A DNA stretch of 64,000 nt from Novosphingobium sp. (GCA_035543295.1 DASZZS010000007.1:13886-77885); one strand, 5' to 3'; counted from the stretch's first letter, positions 19,965 through 31,803 are shown. Made by a program: numbers and translations. The notes: generated from the letters alone by a model not told the origin.

Positions 19965-20038
19965 TGGATGCCCCGCGAGGATTCGAACCTCGATTGACGG
20001 TGTCAGAGACCGTAGTCTTACCATTAGACGACAGGGCA
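19965..20038 (-). tRNA. tRNA-Gln (anticodon CUG)
   Basis: The reverse complement reads TGCCCTGTCGTCTAATGGTAAGACTACGGTCTCTGACACCGTCAATCGAGGTTCGAATCCTCGCGGGGCATCCA. It has a U1-A72 pair, an ACGGT/ACCGT anticodon stem with loop CTCTGAC, a GGTTCGAATCC T-arm and an encoded CCA. Confidence 0.9.
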
Positions 20039-23810: not shown

Positions 23811-24902
23811 ATGACTGCGCACGGAATTATCGACGTCCCGTCTGCCACGCTGGCACGCTCGCCCGAGCGGCAGGCGGCTGCGGCGATCCCCGACGACAAG
23901 CACCTGCTCCGCGCCGCAGTCGAGCTGAGCCGCGACATTTCGGTCGCCAAGCCAGCGATCTATTGGGCGGACATGCTGGGGTCCGCCGCGCTGGGCTATG
24001 CCGCGCTGGCGGTGGCGATCCTGGTCGGTAACCCGTTCCTTGCGGGCGCTTGTGGCATCGTCGCCGCACTGGCGCTCTACCGCGCGCTGCTATTCATCCA
24101 TGAGCTGACGCATATCCACCCCACCGCGCTGCCGGGTTTCCGGCTGGCGTGGAATCTGCTGGTCGGCGTGCCGATGATGATGCCCTCGCTGATGTATGAG
24201 AACGTCCACACGCTGCACCACGCGCGGACCCGCTATGGCACCGCGGACGATCCGGAATATTTGCCGCTCGCGCTGATGAAGCCGTGGTCGCTGCCGCTGT
24301 TTATTGTGGTGGCGATGCTGTTGCCGGTCGGCTTGCTGCTGCGCTCAGCCGTCTTGGTGCCGCTTGGTGCATTGGTTCCCCCGCTCCGGCGCTTGGTGTG
24401 GGAACGTGCCTCGGCGTTGTCGATCAACCCCGATTTCCGCCGCCGCCCGGCCGAAGGCAAGTTCGCCGTCATGGTGCGCTGGCAGGAGACGGGGGCGTGG
24501 CTGTGGTCGTGGTTCCTGATCGCCACGGCGGTGCTCTACGATTGGCGCCCGCTGGCGATCGGCCTGGCGGTGATTTCGGTCACCGCAGTGCTCAACCAGC
24601 TGCGCACGCTGGTCGCGCACCTGTGGGAGAACGAGGGCGAGCCGATGACCGTCACCGCGCAATATCTCGACACGGTCAATGTCCCCCCGCCCGGCTTGTG
24701 GGCCGAACTCTGGGCCCCGGTCGGCCTGCGCTACCACGCGCTGCATCATCTGCTGCCGAGCATGCCCTACCACTCGTATCCCGAAGCGCACCGGCGGCTG
24801 GCGGCGCATGCGAGTGGGAGTGTTACCTATGCCAAGGCGAGCTACGCCGGGATGCTCCCGCTGGTCGGCAAGATCGCGCGCAGCACGATGGGCTTTCGCT
24901 GA
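23811..24902 (+). CDS. Membrane fatty-acid desaturase family protein
   Basis: Start at MTAHGIID (23811). There are three His boxes: HELTH, HTLHH and HALHH. The protein has multiple TM helices. Confidence 0.8.
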   Translation: MTAHGIIDVPSATLARSPERQAAAAIPDDKHLLRAAVELSRDISVAKPAIYWADMLGSAALGYAALAVAILVGNPFLAGACGIVAALALYRALLFIHELTHIHPTALPGFRLAWNLLVGVPMMMPSLMYENVHTLHHARTRYGTADDPEYLPLALMKPWSLPLFIVVAMLLPVGLLLRSAVLVPLGALVPPLRRLVWERASALSINPDFRRRPAEGKFAVMVRWQETGAWLWSWFLIATAVLYDWRPLAIGLAVISVTAVLNQLRTLVAHLWENEGEPMTVTAQYLDTVNVPPPGLWAELWAPVGLRYHALHHLLPSMPYHSYPEAHRRLAAHASGSVTYAKASYAGMLPLVGKIARSTMGFR

Positions 24903-24904
24903 CG

Positions 24905-27210: not shown

Positions 27211-27570
27211 GGCGGGGTAATGGCTTGGGCAGCCCCCAAGGTCAATCGCGCGGGTCCATTGCCGAGGGCGGGAAGCGAAAGGTGACTAAAGGTGACACCA
27301 AGGCACGCGCTCACCGGCGTCGCCCATCGCCGAAAAACTGCGTTGATTTCCTTGCGTTTTTAATCAGGGCAGGGTGACAAAGGCGACACCGTGTCACCCA
27401 AATTATGCTACCTTTATCCATTTGTTTCAACAGGATAAGCTCGCAAGGGTGGCAGATGATATATTCCGCCGCAGCAACGCCGCGCGCCGACAGGATCGAA
27501 GGGCCGACGATTGGAAAGAGCGGCCAAGAGGATAGCAGGCGGCGGGCGTGTAGGAAAATGGTGTTGCTAG

Positions 27571-27692
27571 TACCTCCCCGGCACGGGAGGGGGACCAGCG
27601 AAGCTGGTGGAGGGGTCCCACCTCTCCGCAGCTGCTGTGCTGGAGGCGAAGGGGGACCCTCCGTCAGTCCTGAGAAGGGAACCGCCCCGGCA
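27571..27692. repeat. GC-rich nested-palindrome element (family 2)
   Basis: CCTCCCCGGCACGGGAGGGGGACCAGCGAAGCTGGTGGAGGGGTCCC...GGGGGACCCTCCGTCAG... It shares its architecture (GGGAGG-GG, short hairpin, GGAGGGGT ... CCCTCCGTCAG) with 59471-59617. The boundaries are approximate. Confidence 0.5.
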
Positions 27693-27731
27693 TGCGCGTC
27701 GAGTTTGGTTTCGGCGTATCCATGCCCAACC

Positions 27732-28079
27732 TCAAGCCTTCTCCAGCGTGCATTGCAGCGGGTGCTGGTTCTGTTTGGCGAAGTCCATCACCTGATGAAC
27801 CTTGGTTTCGGCGATCTCGTAAGGGAAAATGCCGCAGACGCCGACGCCCTTCTGGTGGACGTGGAGCATCACGCGGGTCGCTTGTTCGAGATCCATGGTG
27901 AAGAAGCGCTTGAGCACCATGACCACGAATTCCATCGGCGTGTAATCGTCGTTGAGCAGCAAGACCTTGAACATGCTCGGCTTTTTGGGCTTGGTCCGGG
28001 TCTTGGTGGCGACCCCGAGCTGGTCCTGGCCACCCGCCCCGTTATCGGCGCCACCATTCTCATCGCCATCATCCGCCAT
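27732..28079 (-). CDS. clpS: ATP-dependent Clp protease adaptor ClpS
   Basis: [27 protein letters not shown]...[29 protein letters not shown] prefer the start at [10 protein letters not shown] (28079) over 28121. Confidence 0.9.
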
Positions 28080-28411
28080 GCGGACAAAGGTTTCGGGCAG
28101 GGCAGGCGGGTAGCGCATCATGGGAATTTACCGCATCGGAGGGGCAAAGGACAAGCCACCCATCGGCGATAAGTCCTTGCCAGCGGACTAACGGCGGTAG
28201 CGCATCGGGGCAACCGGCTTGGCACTGTGCCCTGCAAGGGGCTGGAATTGCTGGCCCGGTTGCGGCAAGGTCGCGACCTGTTCGCCGGGGGAAGGACCAT
28301 TCGCTGAGCCGTTCCGATGCCTCCCCCGCCGCACCACCGGCACCGGGCCTGCGCCTGAACCTGGGGGTCACGGGCCACCGCGCGGCGCATCCCGGCTTTG
28401 CGCAGGGCGAG

Positions 28412-30307
28412 GTGAAGATCGGCGCGGTGCTGGCTGAAATCTTCGCGCTGTTCGATGCGGCGGTGGCGGCATCCCCGGCGGTCCCCGGCGCGGGCGCGCC
28501 GATGCCGACCCGGTTCCACACTTTACTCGCCGACGGGACCGACAGTGTCGCCGCAGATCTCGCGCTGGCGCGGGGCTATGAGCTGGTCGCGCCGCTGCCG
28601 TTCGGGCGGCGGCTCAACAAGGCGATCAACGCGCTGCCCCCCGATGCGGCGGATGCGCGGGCGCTGCTCGCCGGCGGGCCCGCCAGCGATCCCGCGACCG
28701 AGCGCCGTGCGGGCGATATCCGCCGCCTGACCGACCGGGCGACCGTGCTGGGCCTCGCCGACGAGGACGAGGCAATCGCCGCGCTCTACCTCGCCAAGCT
28801 CGATGCCCCGACCGACTTTGCCCGCGCGCAGCTGTTCGCCGCCGAGAGCTCGCGCCGCGTCGCGCTGGCGGGGCGCATCCTGATCGAGCAGTCCGACGCG
28901 CTGATCGCGGTGTGGGACGGGGTGACCACCGCGCATGTCGGCGGCACCGGCGATACCATCGCCGCCGCGCTCCACCAGGGCTGCCCGGTGCTGTGGATCG
29001 ATCCGGTCCGCCCCGCCGAATGGTGCATCCTGCGCACCCCTGAATCGCTCGCCGCGCTCGACCACGCCGGGGGCGAGGACCGGCTGCAGCTGGTCGAGGC
29101 GATCGTCCGCGCCGCGCTCCACCCCGGCGACGAGCCCGACCATCCGGGGATCGGGATGCTCCAGCATGAGCGCTGGCACCCGCACAGCAGCGGTCTTGCC
29201 CAAGGCTATCGCCGGATCGAGGCGCTGTTTGGCGAGGATCGCTGGCGCGGCCGCTTGCGGGACATTCGCGTCACTTACCGCGACCCGGCCACTATGGGCG
29301 AGGGGGCTGGGGAAGGTCCGGAGATGCTCGCCACCGCGCGCGCGCTGCCCTGCGTCGATCCCGCGCTGGTCGCGCGGATCGAGGCGGGGGTGCTGCGGCG
29401 CTTCGCGTGGATGGACGGGATTTCGGCGCATCTCTCGGATAGCTACCGCGGCGGGATGATCGTCAATTTCGTGCTCTCCAGCCTCGCGATTGTCGGGGGC
29501 ATGTCGTATCTCCCATTCGTCTCCGCGCCCAACAAATGGCTGTTCGCGCTGTTCGAACTGCTGCTGCTCAGCGCGATCCTGGTCATCACCATGCTCGGGC
29601 AAAAGCGCCGCTGGCACGGCCGCTGGTTCGAGACCCGGCGGGTCGCCGAATATCTGCGCCACGGGCCGATCCTGCTGACGCTGGGGGCGGCGCGTCCGCC
29701 CGGGCGCTGGCCGCAGGGCGCGGAGACCAGCTGGCCCGAATTCTATGCGCGCAACGTCATGCGCGAGATCGGACTGCCCGCGATGGTCATCACCGCGCCC
29801 TATCTGCGCGGGGTGCTGACCGGGCTGCTCGATGCGCATGTCGTCAGCCAGCGCGACTACCACTATGGCAAGGCCGAGCGGCTGACCACGGTCCACCACC
29901 GGCTCGATGCGCTGTCCAACCGGTTGTTCCAGCTCGCGGTCCTGTCGGTCGCGCTGTACCTCGCGTTGCGCGGAATGGCGGCGGGGGGGCTTATCAGCGA
30001 GGAATGGCTCGATCACCAGTCCAAGTGGTTCACCGTGCTGGGAGTGATGTTCCCGACCTTCGGCGCGGGGATCGCGGGGATCCGCTATTTCGGCGATTTC
30101 GAGCGGTTTGCGGCAATCTCCGAGGTGACCGCCGAAAAGCTCGATTCGGTCCACGAACGCATCACCGTGCTCGCCGCCGCGCCCGATGCCGCGCTCAACT
30201 ATGGCCGGGTCGCCGAACTGGCGCACGCCACCGACGAGATCGTGTTTGACGAAATCGAGAACTGGCAGGCGGTGTTCGGCGGCAAGCAGATCGCGGTGCC
30301 GGTTTGA
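28412..30307 (+). CDS. Orphan membrane protein: SLOG-like N-terminal domain plus two tandem 2-TM (SLATT-like) modules
   Basis: 631-aa ORF from the GTG at 28412. The frame stays open upstream and encodes RLNLGVTGHR, so a probable CTG start at 28304 follows GGGGGAAGGA. SLOG-like motifs: LLADGTDSVAADLALARGYELVAPLPF and SDALIAVWDGVTTAHVGGTGDTIAAALHQGCPVLWID. There are two TM hairpins, each followed by an amphipathic helix (RRWHGRWFETRRVAEYLR; IRYFGDFERFAAISEVTAEKL). The domain names come from motif recollection, not from an HMM search. Confidence 0.6.
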   Translation: MKIGAVLAEIFALFDAAVAASPAVPGAGAPMPTRFHTLLADGTDSVAADLALARGYELVAPLPFGRRLNKAINALPPDAADARALLAGGPASDPATERRAGDIRRLTDRATVLGLADEDEAIAALYLAKLDAPTDFARAQLFAAESSRRVALAGRILIEQSDALIAVWDGVTTAHVGGTGDTIAAALHQGCPVLWIDPVRPAEWCILRTPESLAALDHAGGEDRLQLVEAIVRAALHPGDEPDHPGIGMLQHERWHPHSSGLAQGYRRIEALFGEDRWRGRLRDIRVTYRDPATMGEGAGEGPEMLATARALPCVDPALVARIEAGVLRRFAWMDGISAHLSDSYRGGMIVNFVLSSLAIVGGMSYLPFVSAPNKWLFALFELLLLSAILVITMLGQKRRWHGRWFETRRVAEYLRHGPILLTLGAARPPGRWPQGAETSWPEFYARNVMREIGLPAMVITAPYLRGVLTGLLDAHVVSQRDYHYGKAERLTTVHHRLDALSNRLFQLAVLSVALYLALRGMAAGGLISEEWLDHQSKWFTVLGVMFPTFGAGIAGIRYFGDFERFAAISEVTAEKLDSVHERITVLAAAPDAALNYGRVAELAHATDEIVFDEIENWQAVFGGKQIAVPV

Positions 30308-30430: not shown

Positions 30431-31357
30431 GTGATGCTAGGAACGCTGCTCGCTCTGGTGGGGCTGGTCTTCATTTTCCTGCTGATGGGCGTGCGCGTCG
30501 TGCGCCAGGGCTACGTCTATACGATCGAGCGGCTCGGCAAATTCAGTCTGGCTGCGAATCCCGGGCTGCATCTGATCATCCCGTTCGTCGACCGGGTCGG
30601 CAACAAGGTCAATATGATGGAGCAAGTGCTCGATATCCCGGGGCAGGAGATCATCACCAAGGACAATGCGATGGTCGGGGTCGACGCGATCGTGTTCTTC
30701 CAGGTGCTCGATGCCGGCAAGGCGGCCTATGAGGTGTCGAACCTCTATCTTGCGATCATGCAGCTCACCACCACCAATTTGCGCACCGTGATGGGCTCGA
30801 TGGACCTCGACGAGACGCTCTCGAAGCGCGACGAGATCAACGGCCGGCTGCTCGCGGTGGTCGATCACGCCACCTCGCCGTGGGGAGTCAAAGTCACCAG
30901 GGTCGAGATCAAGGATATCCGCCCGCCGATCGACATTTCCAACGCGATGGCGCGCCAGATGATCGCCGAGCGCGAGAAGCGCGCCCAGATCCTCGACGCC
31001 GAGGGCGCGCGCGCCAGCGAAATCCTGCGCGCCGAGGGTGAGAAGCAGGGCGCGATCCTGTCGGCCGAGGGCCGCAAGGAAGCCGCGTTCCGCGACGCCG
31101 AAGCGCGCGAGCGCTCGGCCCAGGCCGAAGCGCAGGCAACCAAGGTGGTGTCCGAGGCGATCGCCACCTCGGGGACGCAGGCGCTCAACTACTTCGTTGC
31201 GCAGAAATATACCGAGGCGGTCGCCCAGTTCGCCAATTCTCCCAACGCCAAGACCATCCTGTTCCCGGTCGAGGCGACCCAGCTGATCGGCTCGCTTGGC
31301 GGGATCGGCGAACTGGTGCGTGACGCTGTTGCGCCCATCGGCGAAGGCAAGCGCTGA
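30431..31357 (+). CDS. SPFH/Band-7 (stomatin-like, QmcA/YbbK-type) protein
   Basis: N-terminal TM helix followed by [18 protein letters not shown]...[18 protein letters not shown]...[17 protein letters not shown], then a coiled-coil tail. Confidence 0.9.
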
Positions 31358-31803
31358 TGGACTGGCTGGAGAGTCTCGACGCGCATTGGGCCTGGCTCGC
31401 GCTGGGGCTGGTGCTGGCGATTGCCGAAATGGCGATCCCGGGCGTGTTCCTGATCTGGCTGGCCGGCGCGGCGCTGGTCACCGGGATGGTGGCGTGGGTG
31501 CTGCCGATCGGGGTCCCGCTGCAGATCGTGATCTTTGCGGTGCTGGCGATTGGCTCGGTCTTCGCCGGCAAGCGCTATCTGGCGGCCAACCCGGTGGTCT
31601 CACCCGATCCGCTGATGAACGATCGCGGCGCGCGACTGGTCGGCGAGATTGTAGTGGTCACACAGGGAATCGACGATGGCAACGGCAAGGTCCGCCAGGG
31701 CGACGGCGAATGGCTGGCGCGCGGACCGGATGCGGAACCCGGCACCAAGATGCGGGTTTCAGGCCACGACGGCACGGTGCTGATTGTGGAACATCTGCAT
31801 TGA
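31357..31803 (+). CDS. NfeD-family membrane protein (partner of the SPFH protein)
   Basis: The start overlaps the SPFH stop (TGATG). TM helices are followed by a C-terminal OB-like segment GKVRQGDGEWLARGPD...GTVLIVEHL. Confidence 0.85.
   Translation: MDWLESLDAHWAWLALGLVLAIAEMAIPGVFLIWLAGAALVTGMVAWVLPIGVPLQIVIFAVLAIGSVFAGKRYLAANPVVSPDPLMNDRGARLVGEIVVVTQGIDDGNGKVRQGDGEWLARGPDAEPGTKMRVSGHDGTVLIVEHLH

Follow-up and report, generated by a model that had tools for sequence, protein, structure and literature searches.

A SLOG-like protein with two SLATT-like membrane modules in Novosphingobium, a candidate effector of TIR-linked nucleotide signalling

The DNA analysed here is a stretch of 64,000 nucleotides from Novosphingobium sp. 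(GCA_035543295.1, DASZZS010000007.1:13886-77885), referred to as the window, with positions counted from its first base. One of its genes, located on the plus strand between clpS and a pair of genes encoding SPFH and NfeD proteins, encodes a large protein with a SLOG-like N-terminal domain (N-domain) followed by two SLATT-like modules of two transmembrane (TM) helices each. The usual neighbour of this gene across its family is a gene encoding a TIR-domain protein, which is lacking in the window and present in a sister genome (L081). Our interpretation, to which a probability of roughly 60% is given, is that its product is the sensor and effector component of a Thoeris-like conflict system, in which a TIR protein would supply the nucleotide signal. 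The features of the locus are displayed in Table 1.

Table 1. Features of the gene and of its surroundings in the window.
Feature	Position	Strand	Basis or remark
Full-length gene, 667 codons and stop	28304-30307	+	Extent inferred from homologues; start codon CTG here, TTG in sister L081
Shine-Dalgarno-like GGGGGAAGGA	28287-28296	+	Read from sequence; 7 nt 5' of CTG 28304; identical in L081 before its TTG
First canonical start, GTG	28412-28414	+	Mechanical list of open reading frames; 631-aa product without the first strand and the GVTGHR loop
SLOG-like Rossmannoid N-domain; motifs GVTGHR, LLADGTD, PLPFG, EQSDALIAVWDG, GGTG	28346-29056	+	AlphaFold2, Foldseek, conservation among 57 members
Helical linker without family assignment, lower model confidence	29057-29389	+	pLDDT ~62-83 over residues 281-350 of the 673-residue model; dN/dS 0.176
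SLATT-like module 1: pre-TM helix, TM1, TM2, basic helix RRWHGRWFETRRVAEYLR	29390-29749	+	SLATT_1 E 2.5e-5; DUF4231 E 1.1e-4; hydropathy
TM1	29456-29512	+	Module 1, hydropathy
TM2 with invariant Glu418	29540-29596	+	Module 1; hydropathy, conservation among 57 members
SLATT-like module 2: TM3, TM4, then RYFGDFERFAAISEV, C-terminal helix ending EIENWQAVFGGK	29918-30271	+	SLATT_1 E 5.3e-5; hydropathy
TM3	29912-29968	+	Module 2, hydropathy
TM4	30026-30082	+	Module 2, hydropathy
clpS	27732-28121	-	Neighbour of the gene
SPFH gene	30431-31357		Neighbour; forms a pair with NfeD
NfeD gene	31357-31803		Neighbour; forms a pair with SPFH
Empty site between fatty-acid desaturase gene and lptG	24891-24903		Opposite L081 1469-4330, a 2.86-kb block of TIR-TPR, PIN and Phd genes

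Positions 28142-30307 of the plus strand form a single frame without interruption, which ends in the stop codon at 30305-30307. All the peptides quoted in the initial annotation of this DNA are encoded in that frame, namely LNLGVTGHR, LLADGTDSVAADLALARG, SDALIAVWDG...GGTGDTIAAALHQGCPVLWID, the four hydrophobic helices, RRWHGRWFETRRVAEYLR and RYFGDFERFAAI. The limits given there for the gene, 28287-30307, are correct at the 3' side, where 30307 is the last base of the stop, but not at the 5' side, where 28287 is no codon boundary and is instead the first base of GGGGGAAGGA. The same annotation was right in placing the GVTGHR strand upstream of a GTG, which is the one at 28412, and the product of 631 amino acids translated from this codon is identical to entry P0001 of the protein collection.

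Homologues of the protein have ~660 amino acids and their N-termini lie ~24 residues before the GxTGHR motif. Moreover, the TTG start of the L081 copy, which is 87% identical to that of the window, is aligned with the window CTG at 28304-28306. The gene was placed at 28304-30307 because of these N-termini, the alignment with the L081 start, the intact GGGGGAAGGA, and the constraint acting on the upstream codons. Initiation at CTG 28304 is favoured by both the conserved N-terminal strand and the ribosome-binding site, in which case the annotated gene would be 36 codons too short. When 67 homologous loci with a recognisable GxTGHR motif were surveyed, an ATG, GTG or TTG was found between the preceding stop and the motif in 66 of them, the window being the sole exception; its start would be non-canonical or recently damaged. 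Initiation at CTG is far less efficient in bacteria than at ATG, GTG or TTG. Scans for Rfam families, tRNAs, promoters and terminators near the gene gave nothing relevant.

Concerning selection, the ratio of nonsynonymous to synonymous substitution rates (dN/dS) between the window gene and its L081 copy is 0.125 over the whole gene and ~0.09 over the 36 codons located 5' of the GTG. The neighbouring genes lptF, lptG, clpS, desaturase and SPFH show values of 0.11-0.16, the same range as the gene, which is under purifying selection. A chance open reading frame (ORF) is ruled out by the low dN/dS, the four hydrophobic segments and the many homologues. These amount to 1199 at E <= 1e-3 among 8000 scored candidates (the 120 listed being 57-100% identical) and to 4841 matches at E <= 1e-3 in an exhaustive search of the representative library.

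The N-domain was modelled alone because the full-length model gave only noise-level matches in Foldseek (ABC transporters, TRPM channels and alpha-pore-forming toxins, all with E >= 0.012). The AlphaFold2 model of the isolated domain, with a mean pLDDT of 86.4, presents an alpha/beta fold with helical inserts. Its high-probability Foldseek matches are LOG-family structures (1rcu, TM1055; 1wek, TT1465; 5wq3, a type II LOG; and YgdH) and DprA (3uqz and 4ljk), with TRPM2 and TRPM5 lower down; the best matches all belong to the SLOG superfamily, at E-values of ~1e-2 to 0.2 and TM-scores of 0.49 or less. On the other hand, Pfam and NCBIfam gave no match to the isolated domain even at E <= 10, and the lone SLOG-type profile signal was the match of one of 57 diverse members of the family to YAcAr (E 0.0099). 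Across these 57 members, which share ~25% identity, the motifs GxTGHR, (A/E)xGxD, PLPF and SDxLIAVWDG-x(5-8)-GGT are invariant or nearly so. We read the conserved motifs as loops at the C-terminal ends of strands, where Rossmannoid domains bind ligands, and the correspondence of the glycine-rich ones to the LOG and DprA motifs is also our reading, not the result of an alignment. Regarding these data, the SLOG-like fold is moderately supported, at the level of fold and motif, and it is at this level that the SLOG domain proposed in the initial annotation stands, as no Pfam or NCBIfam SLOG profile recognises it.

Sequence-profile searches of the PDB, with a full-length profile and with one built from diverse N-domains, returned nothing significant. 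The best match, itself non-significant, was a nucleoside 2-deoxyribosyltransferase over SDxLIAVWDG...GGT...PV, and a relationship of the N-domain to these proteins would be compatible with the data. Since the LOG-family enzymes are also the closest folds, the N-domain could be an enzyme, an N-glycosidase similar to LOG or to nucleoside 2-deoxyribosyltransferases, which the membrane part would anchor or regulate. LOG enzymes carry the motif PGGxGTxxE, with an acidic residue after GGxGT. This position is non-acidic here (GGTGDTIAAAL; family consensus GGTxxxxxxAL), the strongest conservation falls in glycine-rich loops typical of binding sites, and SLOG is the receptor in TIR-linked systems such as that of ThsA. 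An enzymatic function of the domain thus seems very unlikely.

In the C-terminal half, Kyte-Doolittle windows revealed hydrophobic segments at amino acids 385-403, 413-431, 537-555 and 575-593, which make two hairpins. The AlphaFold2 model of the full-length protein (mean pLDDT 86.7, pTM 0.83) shows long helices that enter and leave each of them. Taken separately, the two halves match NCBIfam SLATT_1 with the E-values given in Table 1, module 1 over profile positions 6-115 of 132 and module 2 over positions 22-130 of 132. The layout of SLATT domains, with closely spaced TM pairs and profile coverage almost end to end, is thus present, and hydropathy and the AlphaFold2 helices agree on it, which bears out the two tandem SLATT-like modules of two TM helices described in the initial annotation. 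The whole protein matches SLATT_1 with an E-value of 5.3e-10 and Pfam DUF4231 with 20.2 bits. Although the SLATT_1 match is significant, its 39.4 bits do not reach the curated cut-off of 41, nor does the DUF4231 score reach its own cut-off of 24.7. Among the 57 diverse members, 44 match DUF4231 at E <= 0.01 (best 4.7e-11) and a few match SLATT_1 or SLATT_3.

An internal duplication of the TM modules was also considered and was not demonstrated, since hhalign detected no significant similarity between the two (E 0.11); the wording "two SLATT-like modules" is used for this reason. A short loop joins TM1 to TM2, and a strongly basic stretch follows TM2 (QKRRWHGRWFETRR). On these grounds we infer a cytoplasmic location for the N-domain, for the region between the modules and for the C-terminus.

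At least 420 species, out of 185,579 represented by one genome each, carry relatives of the protein. Among the matches listed, they belong to Sphingomonadales, Caulobacterales and Hyphomonadaceae, Rhizomicrobium, and a few gamma- and betaproteobacterial metagenome-assembled genomes. The search of plasmids gave one match, on a 1.8-Mb Novosphingobium replicon, and the search of phages gave none. This survey of taxa and neighbourhoods, which the initial annotation had recommended, revealed varying contexts and a linkage to TIR genes.

The neighbourhoods were analysed in two sets of loci, searching for TIR genes within 6 kb, in the close set with an iterated TIR profile; a locus was considered fully flanked when each of its sides extended over 3 kb or more. 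The close set comprises 80 species loci, of which 47 are fully flanked, and the second set 82 loci (80 from metagenomes together with L083 and L084), the first 18 being 43-58% identical and the rest 26-29%. Clustering of the flanking ORFs in the close set produced one dominant group, present in 44/80 loci and formed mostly by ~650-aa proteins in which a TIR_2 domain at the N-terminus precedes a FlgO-like region and TPRs, with a TIR-STAND-TPR variant. A gene with a TIR_2 domain lies within 6 kb in 47/80 loci of the close set (29/47 when fully flanked). The second set shows a TIR in 37/82 loci (15/26 when fully flanked), and its partners are mostly on the same strand and within ~1.2 kb. The partner TIR proteins carry TPR, WD40 or STAND modules, and the Glu of their S..W...E motif, which we take to be the catalytic residue of TIR NADases, is kept in 75/76 aligned partner TIR domains.

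The arrangement of the pair differs among genomes. A TIR-TPR gene lies 540 bp 5' of the homologue in L118, and in Parvularcula lutaonensis the order is ion channel, homologue and a convergent TIR-WD40 gene 4 bp downstream. Divergent pairs, with the TIR genes ~100-140 bp from the homologue (L166 and L167), are found in an Erythrobacteraceae genome amid housekeeping genes and in Novosphingobium sp. RL4, where the distance is 137 bp. A Parasphingorhabdus chromosome (L165) has a four-gene island beside type IV secretion system and IS630 genes, in which an Ion_trans_2 gene is followed by the homologue, then by a trypsin-like gene and, after a small ORF, by a TIR-TPR gene.

The remaining fully flanked loci of the close set, 18/47 (~40%), have no TIR gene, all of them with the gene intact, and no alternative recurrent partner was found in the TIR-less loci. 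Orphan copies are hence not unusual in the family. These loci, together with the absence of a TIR from the window and the purifying selection on its gene, would fit a stand-alone nucleotide-gated membrane effector or channel, whose SLOG-like domain senses an endogenous or invader nucleotide without a dedicated enzyme. A TIR adjacency of ~60%, observed in both clades and with three TIR architectures, is nevertheless hard to explain without a functional link; moreover, L081 retains its TIR gene, and the partner of the TIR-less loci may sit elsewhere in the genome. A stand-alone function is for these reasons considered unlikely.

The surroundings of the gene were compared with those in L081, where the order is desaturase, TIR (655 aa), PIN, Phd, lptG, lptF, DNA methylase, GIY-YIG, clpS, homologue and SPFH, with 5.8 kb between the TIR gene and the homologue. 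The blastn alignment of L081 with the window flanks two L081 blocks, both cleanly absent from the window. The TIR-PIN-Phd block (L081 1469-4330) has 13 bp opposite it (window 24891-24903). The block of 2.1 kb with the DNA methylase and GIY-YIG genes (L081 6668-8747), in the interval between lptF and clpS, stands opposite an unrelated sequence of 509 bp (window 27225-27733) in which no convincing ORF and no Rfam match were found. A sigma-70-like promoter match lies inside this interval on the minus strand (27430-27402). Elsewhere in the window there are two tRNA genes on the minus strand, tRNA-Gly(TCC) at 1330-1403 and tRNA-Gln(CTG) at 19965-20038, which are unrelated to the finding.

Neither tblastn nor the profile built from the partner TIRs detected a TIR homologue in the 64-kb window, so the window copy is orphaned in cis. 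The initial annotation had described the protein as an orphan that would have to sense a nucleotide by itself, with clpS and the SPFH-NfeD pair as neighbours. The neighbours are as it stated, and the orphan status is true locally, but not family-wide. Sensing without a partner is not a necessity either, given that a TIR gene is the usual neighbour across the family and is present in L081. These same two facts led us to see here a partner-linked effector family, with a window copy that has lost its partner in cis.

A housekeeping envelope protein acting with clpS or with SPFH-NfeD was contemplated as well, since the gene adjoins them both here and in its closest relative and its sequence is highly conserved. 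Nevertheless, the clpS/SPFH synteny appears in 1/80 species loci, that of the closest relative, while the other contexts are unrelated to it, including the island located beside conjugation and transposase genes, and the relatives are confirmed in at least 420 species genomes among the 185,579. A functional link to clpS or SPFH/NfeD was therefore rejected, and a housekeeping role is extremely unlikely.

The lineage of the window combines the absence of the TIR block with a change of start codon. This opens the possibility that its copy is a silenced or decaying relic, in which TTG became CTG once the TIR block had been lost, leaving scarcely any full-length product or none; a protein started at GTG 28412 would be devoid of the first strand of the sensor. 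The weakness of CTG initiation and the unique position of the window among the 67 loci are in agreement with it. However, the frame of 667 codons is intact, its dN/dS lies within the range of the housekeeping neighbours, the 36 codons 5' of the GTG are constrained too, and the ribosome-binding site is intact with ideal spacing. As these dN/dS values average the whole divergence from L081, they are compatible with a recent loss. Such a decay is possible, although doubtful, and it would concern this copy alone, being compatible with a Thoeris-like explanation of the family.

In the Thoeris-like system that we propose, the partner protein, with a catalytic-type TIR at its N-terminus and TPR, WD40 or STAND-TPR modules at its C-terminus, would sense the invader. 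Once activated, its TIR would presumably turn NAD+ into a signal derived from ADP-ribose (ADPR). This signal would presumably be bound by the cytoplasmic SLOG-like domain, probably at the site formed by the loops GxTGHR, ExGxD and WDG...GGT. Binding would be expected to switch the two SLATT-like hairpins to a membrane-breaching or conducting state, probably via oligomerisation, so that the cell would depolarise and either stop growing or die. The data show the domain architecture, the elements of membrane topology, the linkage of the family to TIR genes and the purifying selection, from which the ligand, the gating, the formation of a pore and a role in defence are deduced. As for the window copy, its CTG start, its intact ribosome-binding site and the absence of a TIR in cis make weak expression probable, and it would either respond to an unlinked TIR of the same genome or be currently idle.

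Several observations weigh against this proposal. The Foldseek matches of the N-domain have weak E-values, the Pfam and NCBIfam models do not recognise it, its best PDB sequence match, a non-significant one, is a nucleoside 2-deoxyribosyltransferase, the SLATT scores stay under their curated cut-offs, and the PADLOC models gave no match to the full protein. The TIR gene that a Thoeris locus carries is lacking in the window, although ~60% of the family loci have it, and the ~40% of fully flanked loci with an intact gene and no TIR indicate that a partner-independent role is possible. Furthermore, the identity of 53-86% across alphaproteobacterial orders is unusually high for a defence gene. Some of the partners are TIR-STAND-TPR proteins, and in Avs-type systems the TIR is an effector that depletes NAD+, not a signal maker. 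Finally, a December 2025 preprint tested two systems of its 'SLOG and 4TM' class in E. coli, one from Streptomyces sp. GKU 895 and one from Ca. Nitrospira nitrosa, and neither of them protected the host (bioRxiv 10.64898/2025.12.03.692087).

The architecture of the partners deserves attention. A single hydrophobic helix is predicted in 16/41 of the longer proteins of the partner cluster, at ~aa 155-205 in 14 of them; it lies directly after the TIR and before a FlgO/TolB-N-like region and TPRs, a topology in the style of Toll-like receptors. The loci with helix-bearing partners are L002, L004, L010, L013, L018, L020, L037, L038, L043, L051, L053, L057 and L080, and the other longer partners, including that of L081, have no hydrophobic helix. 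Partners with a single helix after the TIR would permit the sensing of a cell-envelope cue, while intact copies without a partner would respond in trans to a signal from an unlinked TIR or from the invader. It could be speculated that the alphaproteobacterial pair of TIR and SLOG-like/2xSLATT proteins is a distinct Thoeris type, with an unusual input logic and with the partner-less copies as receptors, which for the moment appears rather unlikely. In L056, L060, L068 and L077 there are two or three tandem TIR-TPR genes 5' of the effector, an arrangement that recalls the multi-TIR type III Thoeris.

Other genes recur in the neighbourhoods. An ion-channel gene often adjoins the homologue (e.g. 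L165 7529-7966, L014 7995-8432, L083 5102-5863); among the first 80 loci, 10 have a small gene of the Ion_trans_2 type, and Parvularcula has one of the Ion_trans type. Considering that 'ion channel' effectors have been validated as type X Thoeris (bioRxiv 10.64898/2025.12.03.692087), a single TIR may be served by two membrane effectors in some islands. Genes for secreted-type trypsin-like proteases are found in 24/80 neighbourhoods (e.g. L010 2297-3448, L165 10101-12026, L037 5706-7724), and 6 loci have caspase-like genes (Peptidase_C14). [quoted passage not shown]

In the distant clade, an ORF of ~190 aa, measured from stop to stop, is found on the same strand at a median of 72 bp 5' of the effector in 12 loci (L105, L107, L110, L112, L117, L120, L124, L131, L138, L143, L152 and L154), and the TIR-TPR gene, where present, is upstream of it. 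This ORF may be a third component, or it may be the frame of the effector itself, open 5' of the matched stretch. L118, which is not one of these 12 loci, has a gap between its TIR-TPR gene and the effector, and Pfam recognised none of the ORFs tried there.

If the proposal is true, there would be a large family of TIR-linked membrane effectors, whose sequences form thousands of clusters and occur in 420 species or more. No experimental characterisation of the SLOG-like/2xSLATT family was found in the literature, in line with what the initial annotation had supposed, so that this large family, missed by PADLOC, is also uncharacterised. As Pfam and NCBIfam miss the sensor domain and the PADLOC models miss the protein, the tools used to find defence systems are probably blind to it. 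The window and L081 offer a natural experiment, with the TIR block absent or present and with CTG or TTG as start. Moreover, the locus carries a lesson for annotation, which is that the status of "orphan" is best judged over the whole family and not from one locus.

Regarding known systems, the SLATT domain has been predicted to be a membrane effector regulated by ADPR derivatives and linked to TIR (PMC9503650; PMC7159879), and DUF4231 has been cited as enriched in defence islands (PMC10799925). The linkage to TIR and the fusion to a SLOG-like domain expected of SLATT proteins are seen at the family level, with no generator gene in the window. Compared with the SLATT described in 2015, as these two works report it (PMC9503650; PMC7159879), the protein of the window joins two modules in tandem within a single chain, its partner is a TIR and not a SMODS/CD-NTase, and its scores are just under the curated cut-offs.

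The closest label is found in the preprint mentioned above, where effectors called 'SLOG and 4TM' or '4TM SLOG' are listed next to TIRs in Tables S1 and S2, the 'SLOG and 4TM' set having five TIRs in one cluster (bioRxiv 10.64898/2025.12.03.692087). The likeness to this class lies in the label given to the architecture and in the position beside a TIR, and the '4TM SLOG' TIR domains are only 26-29% identical to the TIRs of two of the surveyed loci. The Nitrospira '4TM SLOG' TIR was not found in the protein collection, whose best match has 64% identity and an uninformative neighbourhood, and the part of the supplement examined has neither a DUF4231 label nor the motif of the partner TIRs.

Outside bacteria, TRPM2 is a eukaryotic cation channel gated by ADPR with an N-terminal SLOG/MHR1-2, and both proteins would combine a ligand domain of SLOG fold with a permeation module. 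The membrane domain of TRPM2 is unrelated, being a tetrameric channel with six TM helices, which leaves the comparison as an analogy; TRPM2, TRPM4, TRPM5 and TRPM8 appear among the weak, non-significant Foldseek matches.

The pair of TIR and SLATT proteins ThsB and ThsH has been validated as type VII Thoeris, with canonical cyclic ADPR (cADPR) as signal; ThsH is annotated as a SLATT-domain protein only, and ligand pockets have been proposed between its SLATT protomers (bioRxiv 10.64898/2025.12.03.692087). As in type VII, a TIR gene is paired in this family with a SLATT-type effector of two TM helices predicted to breach the membrane on binding the signal. With ThsH taken by its description, the protein of the window adds a SLOG-like domain of ~240 aa and a second SLATT-like module, and in its family the TIR domain belongs to large partners that bear TPR, WD40 or STAND modules. 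In ThsA, the SIR2-SLOG protein of type I Thoeris, the SLOG domain is the receptor for 3'cADPR (bioRxiv 10.64898/2025.12.03.692087), so that a SLOG receptor of a TIR-made ADPR derivative controls a fused toxic domain. The effector of ThsA is a soluble SIR2 NADase, whereas the protein studied here has a membrane module and an N-domain without sequence-profile similarity to any SLOG family model in the Pfam and NCBIfam scans. Computational work offers precedents for this architecture as well as for its association with TIR genes, and by analogy the protein could act like a Thoeris effector that combines a sensor of the ThsA kind with a membrane module of the ThsH kind.

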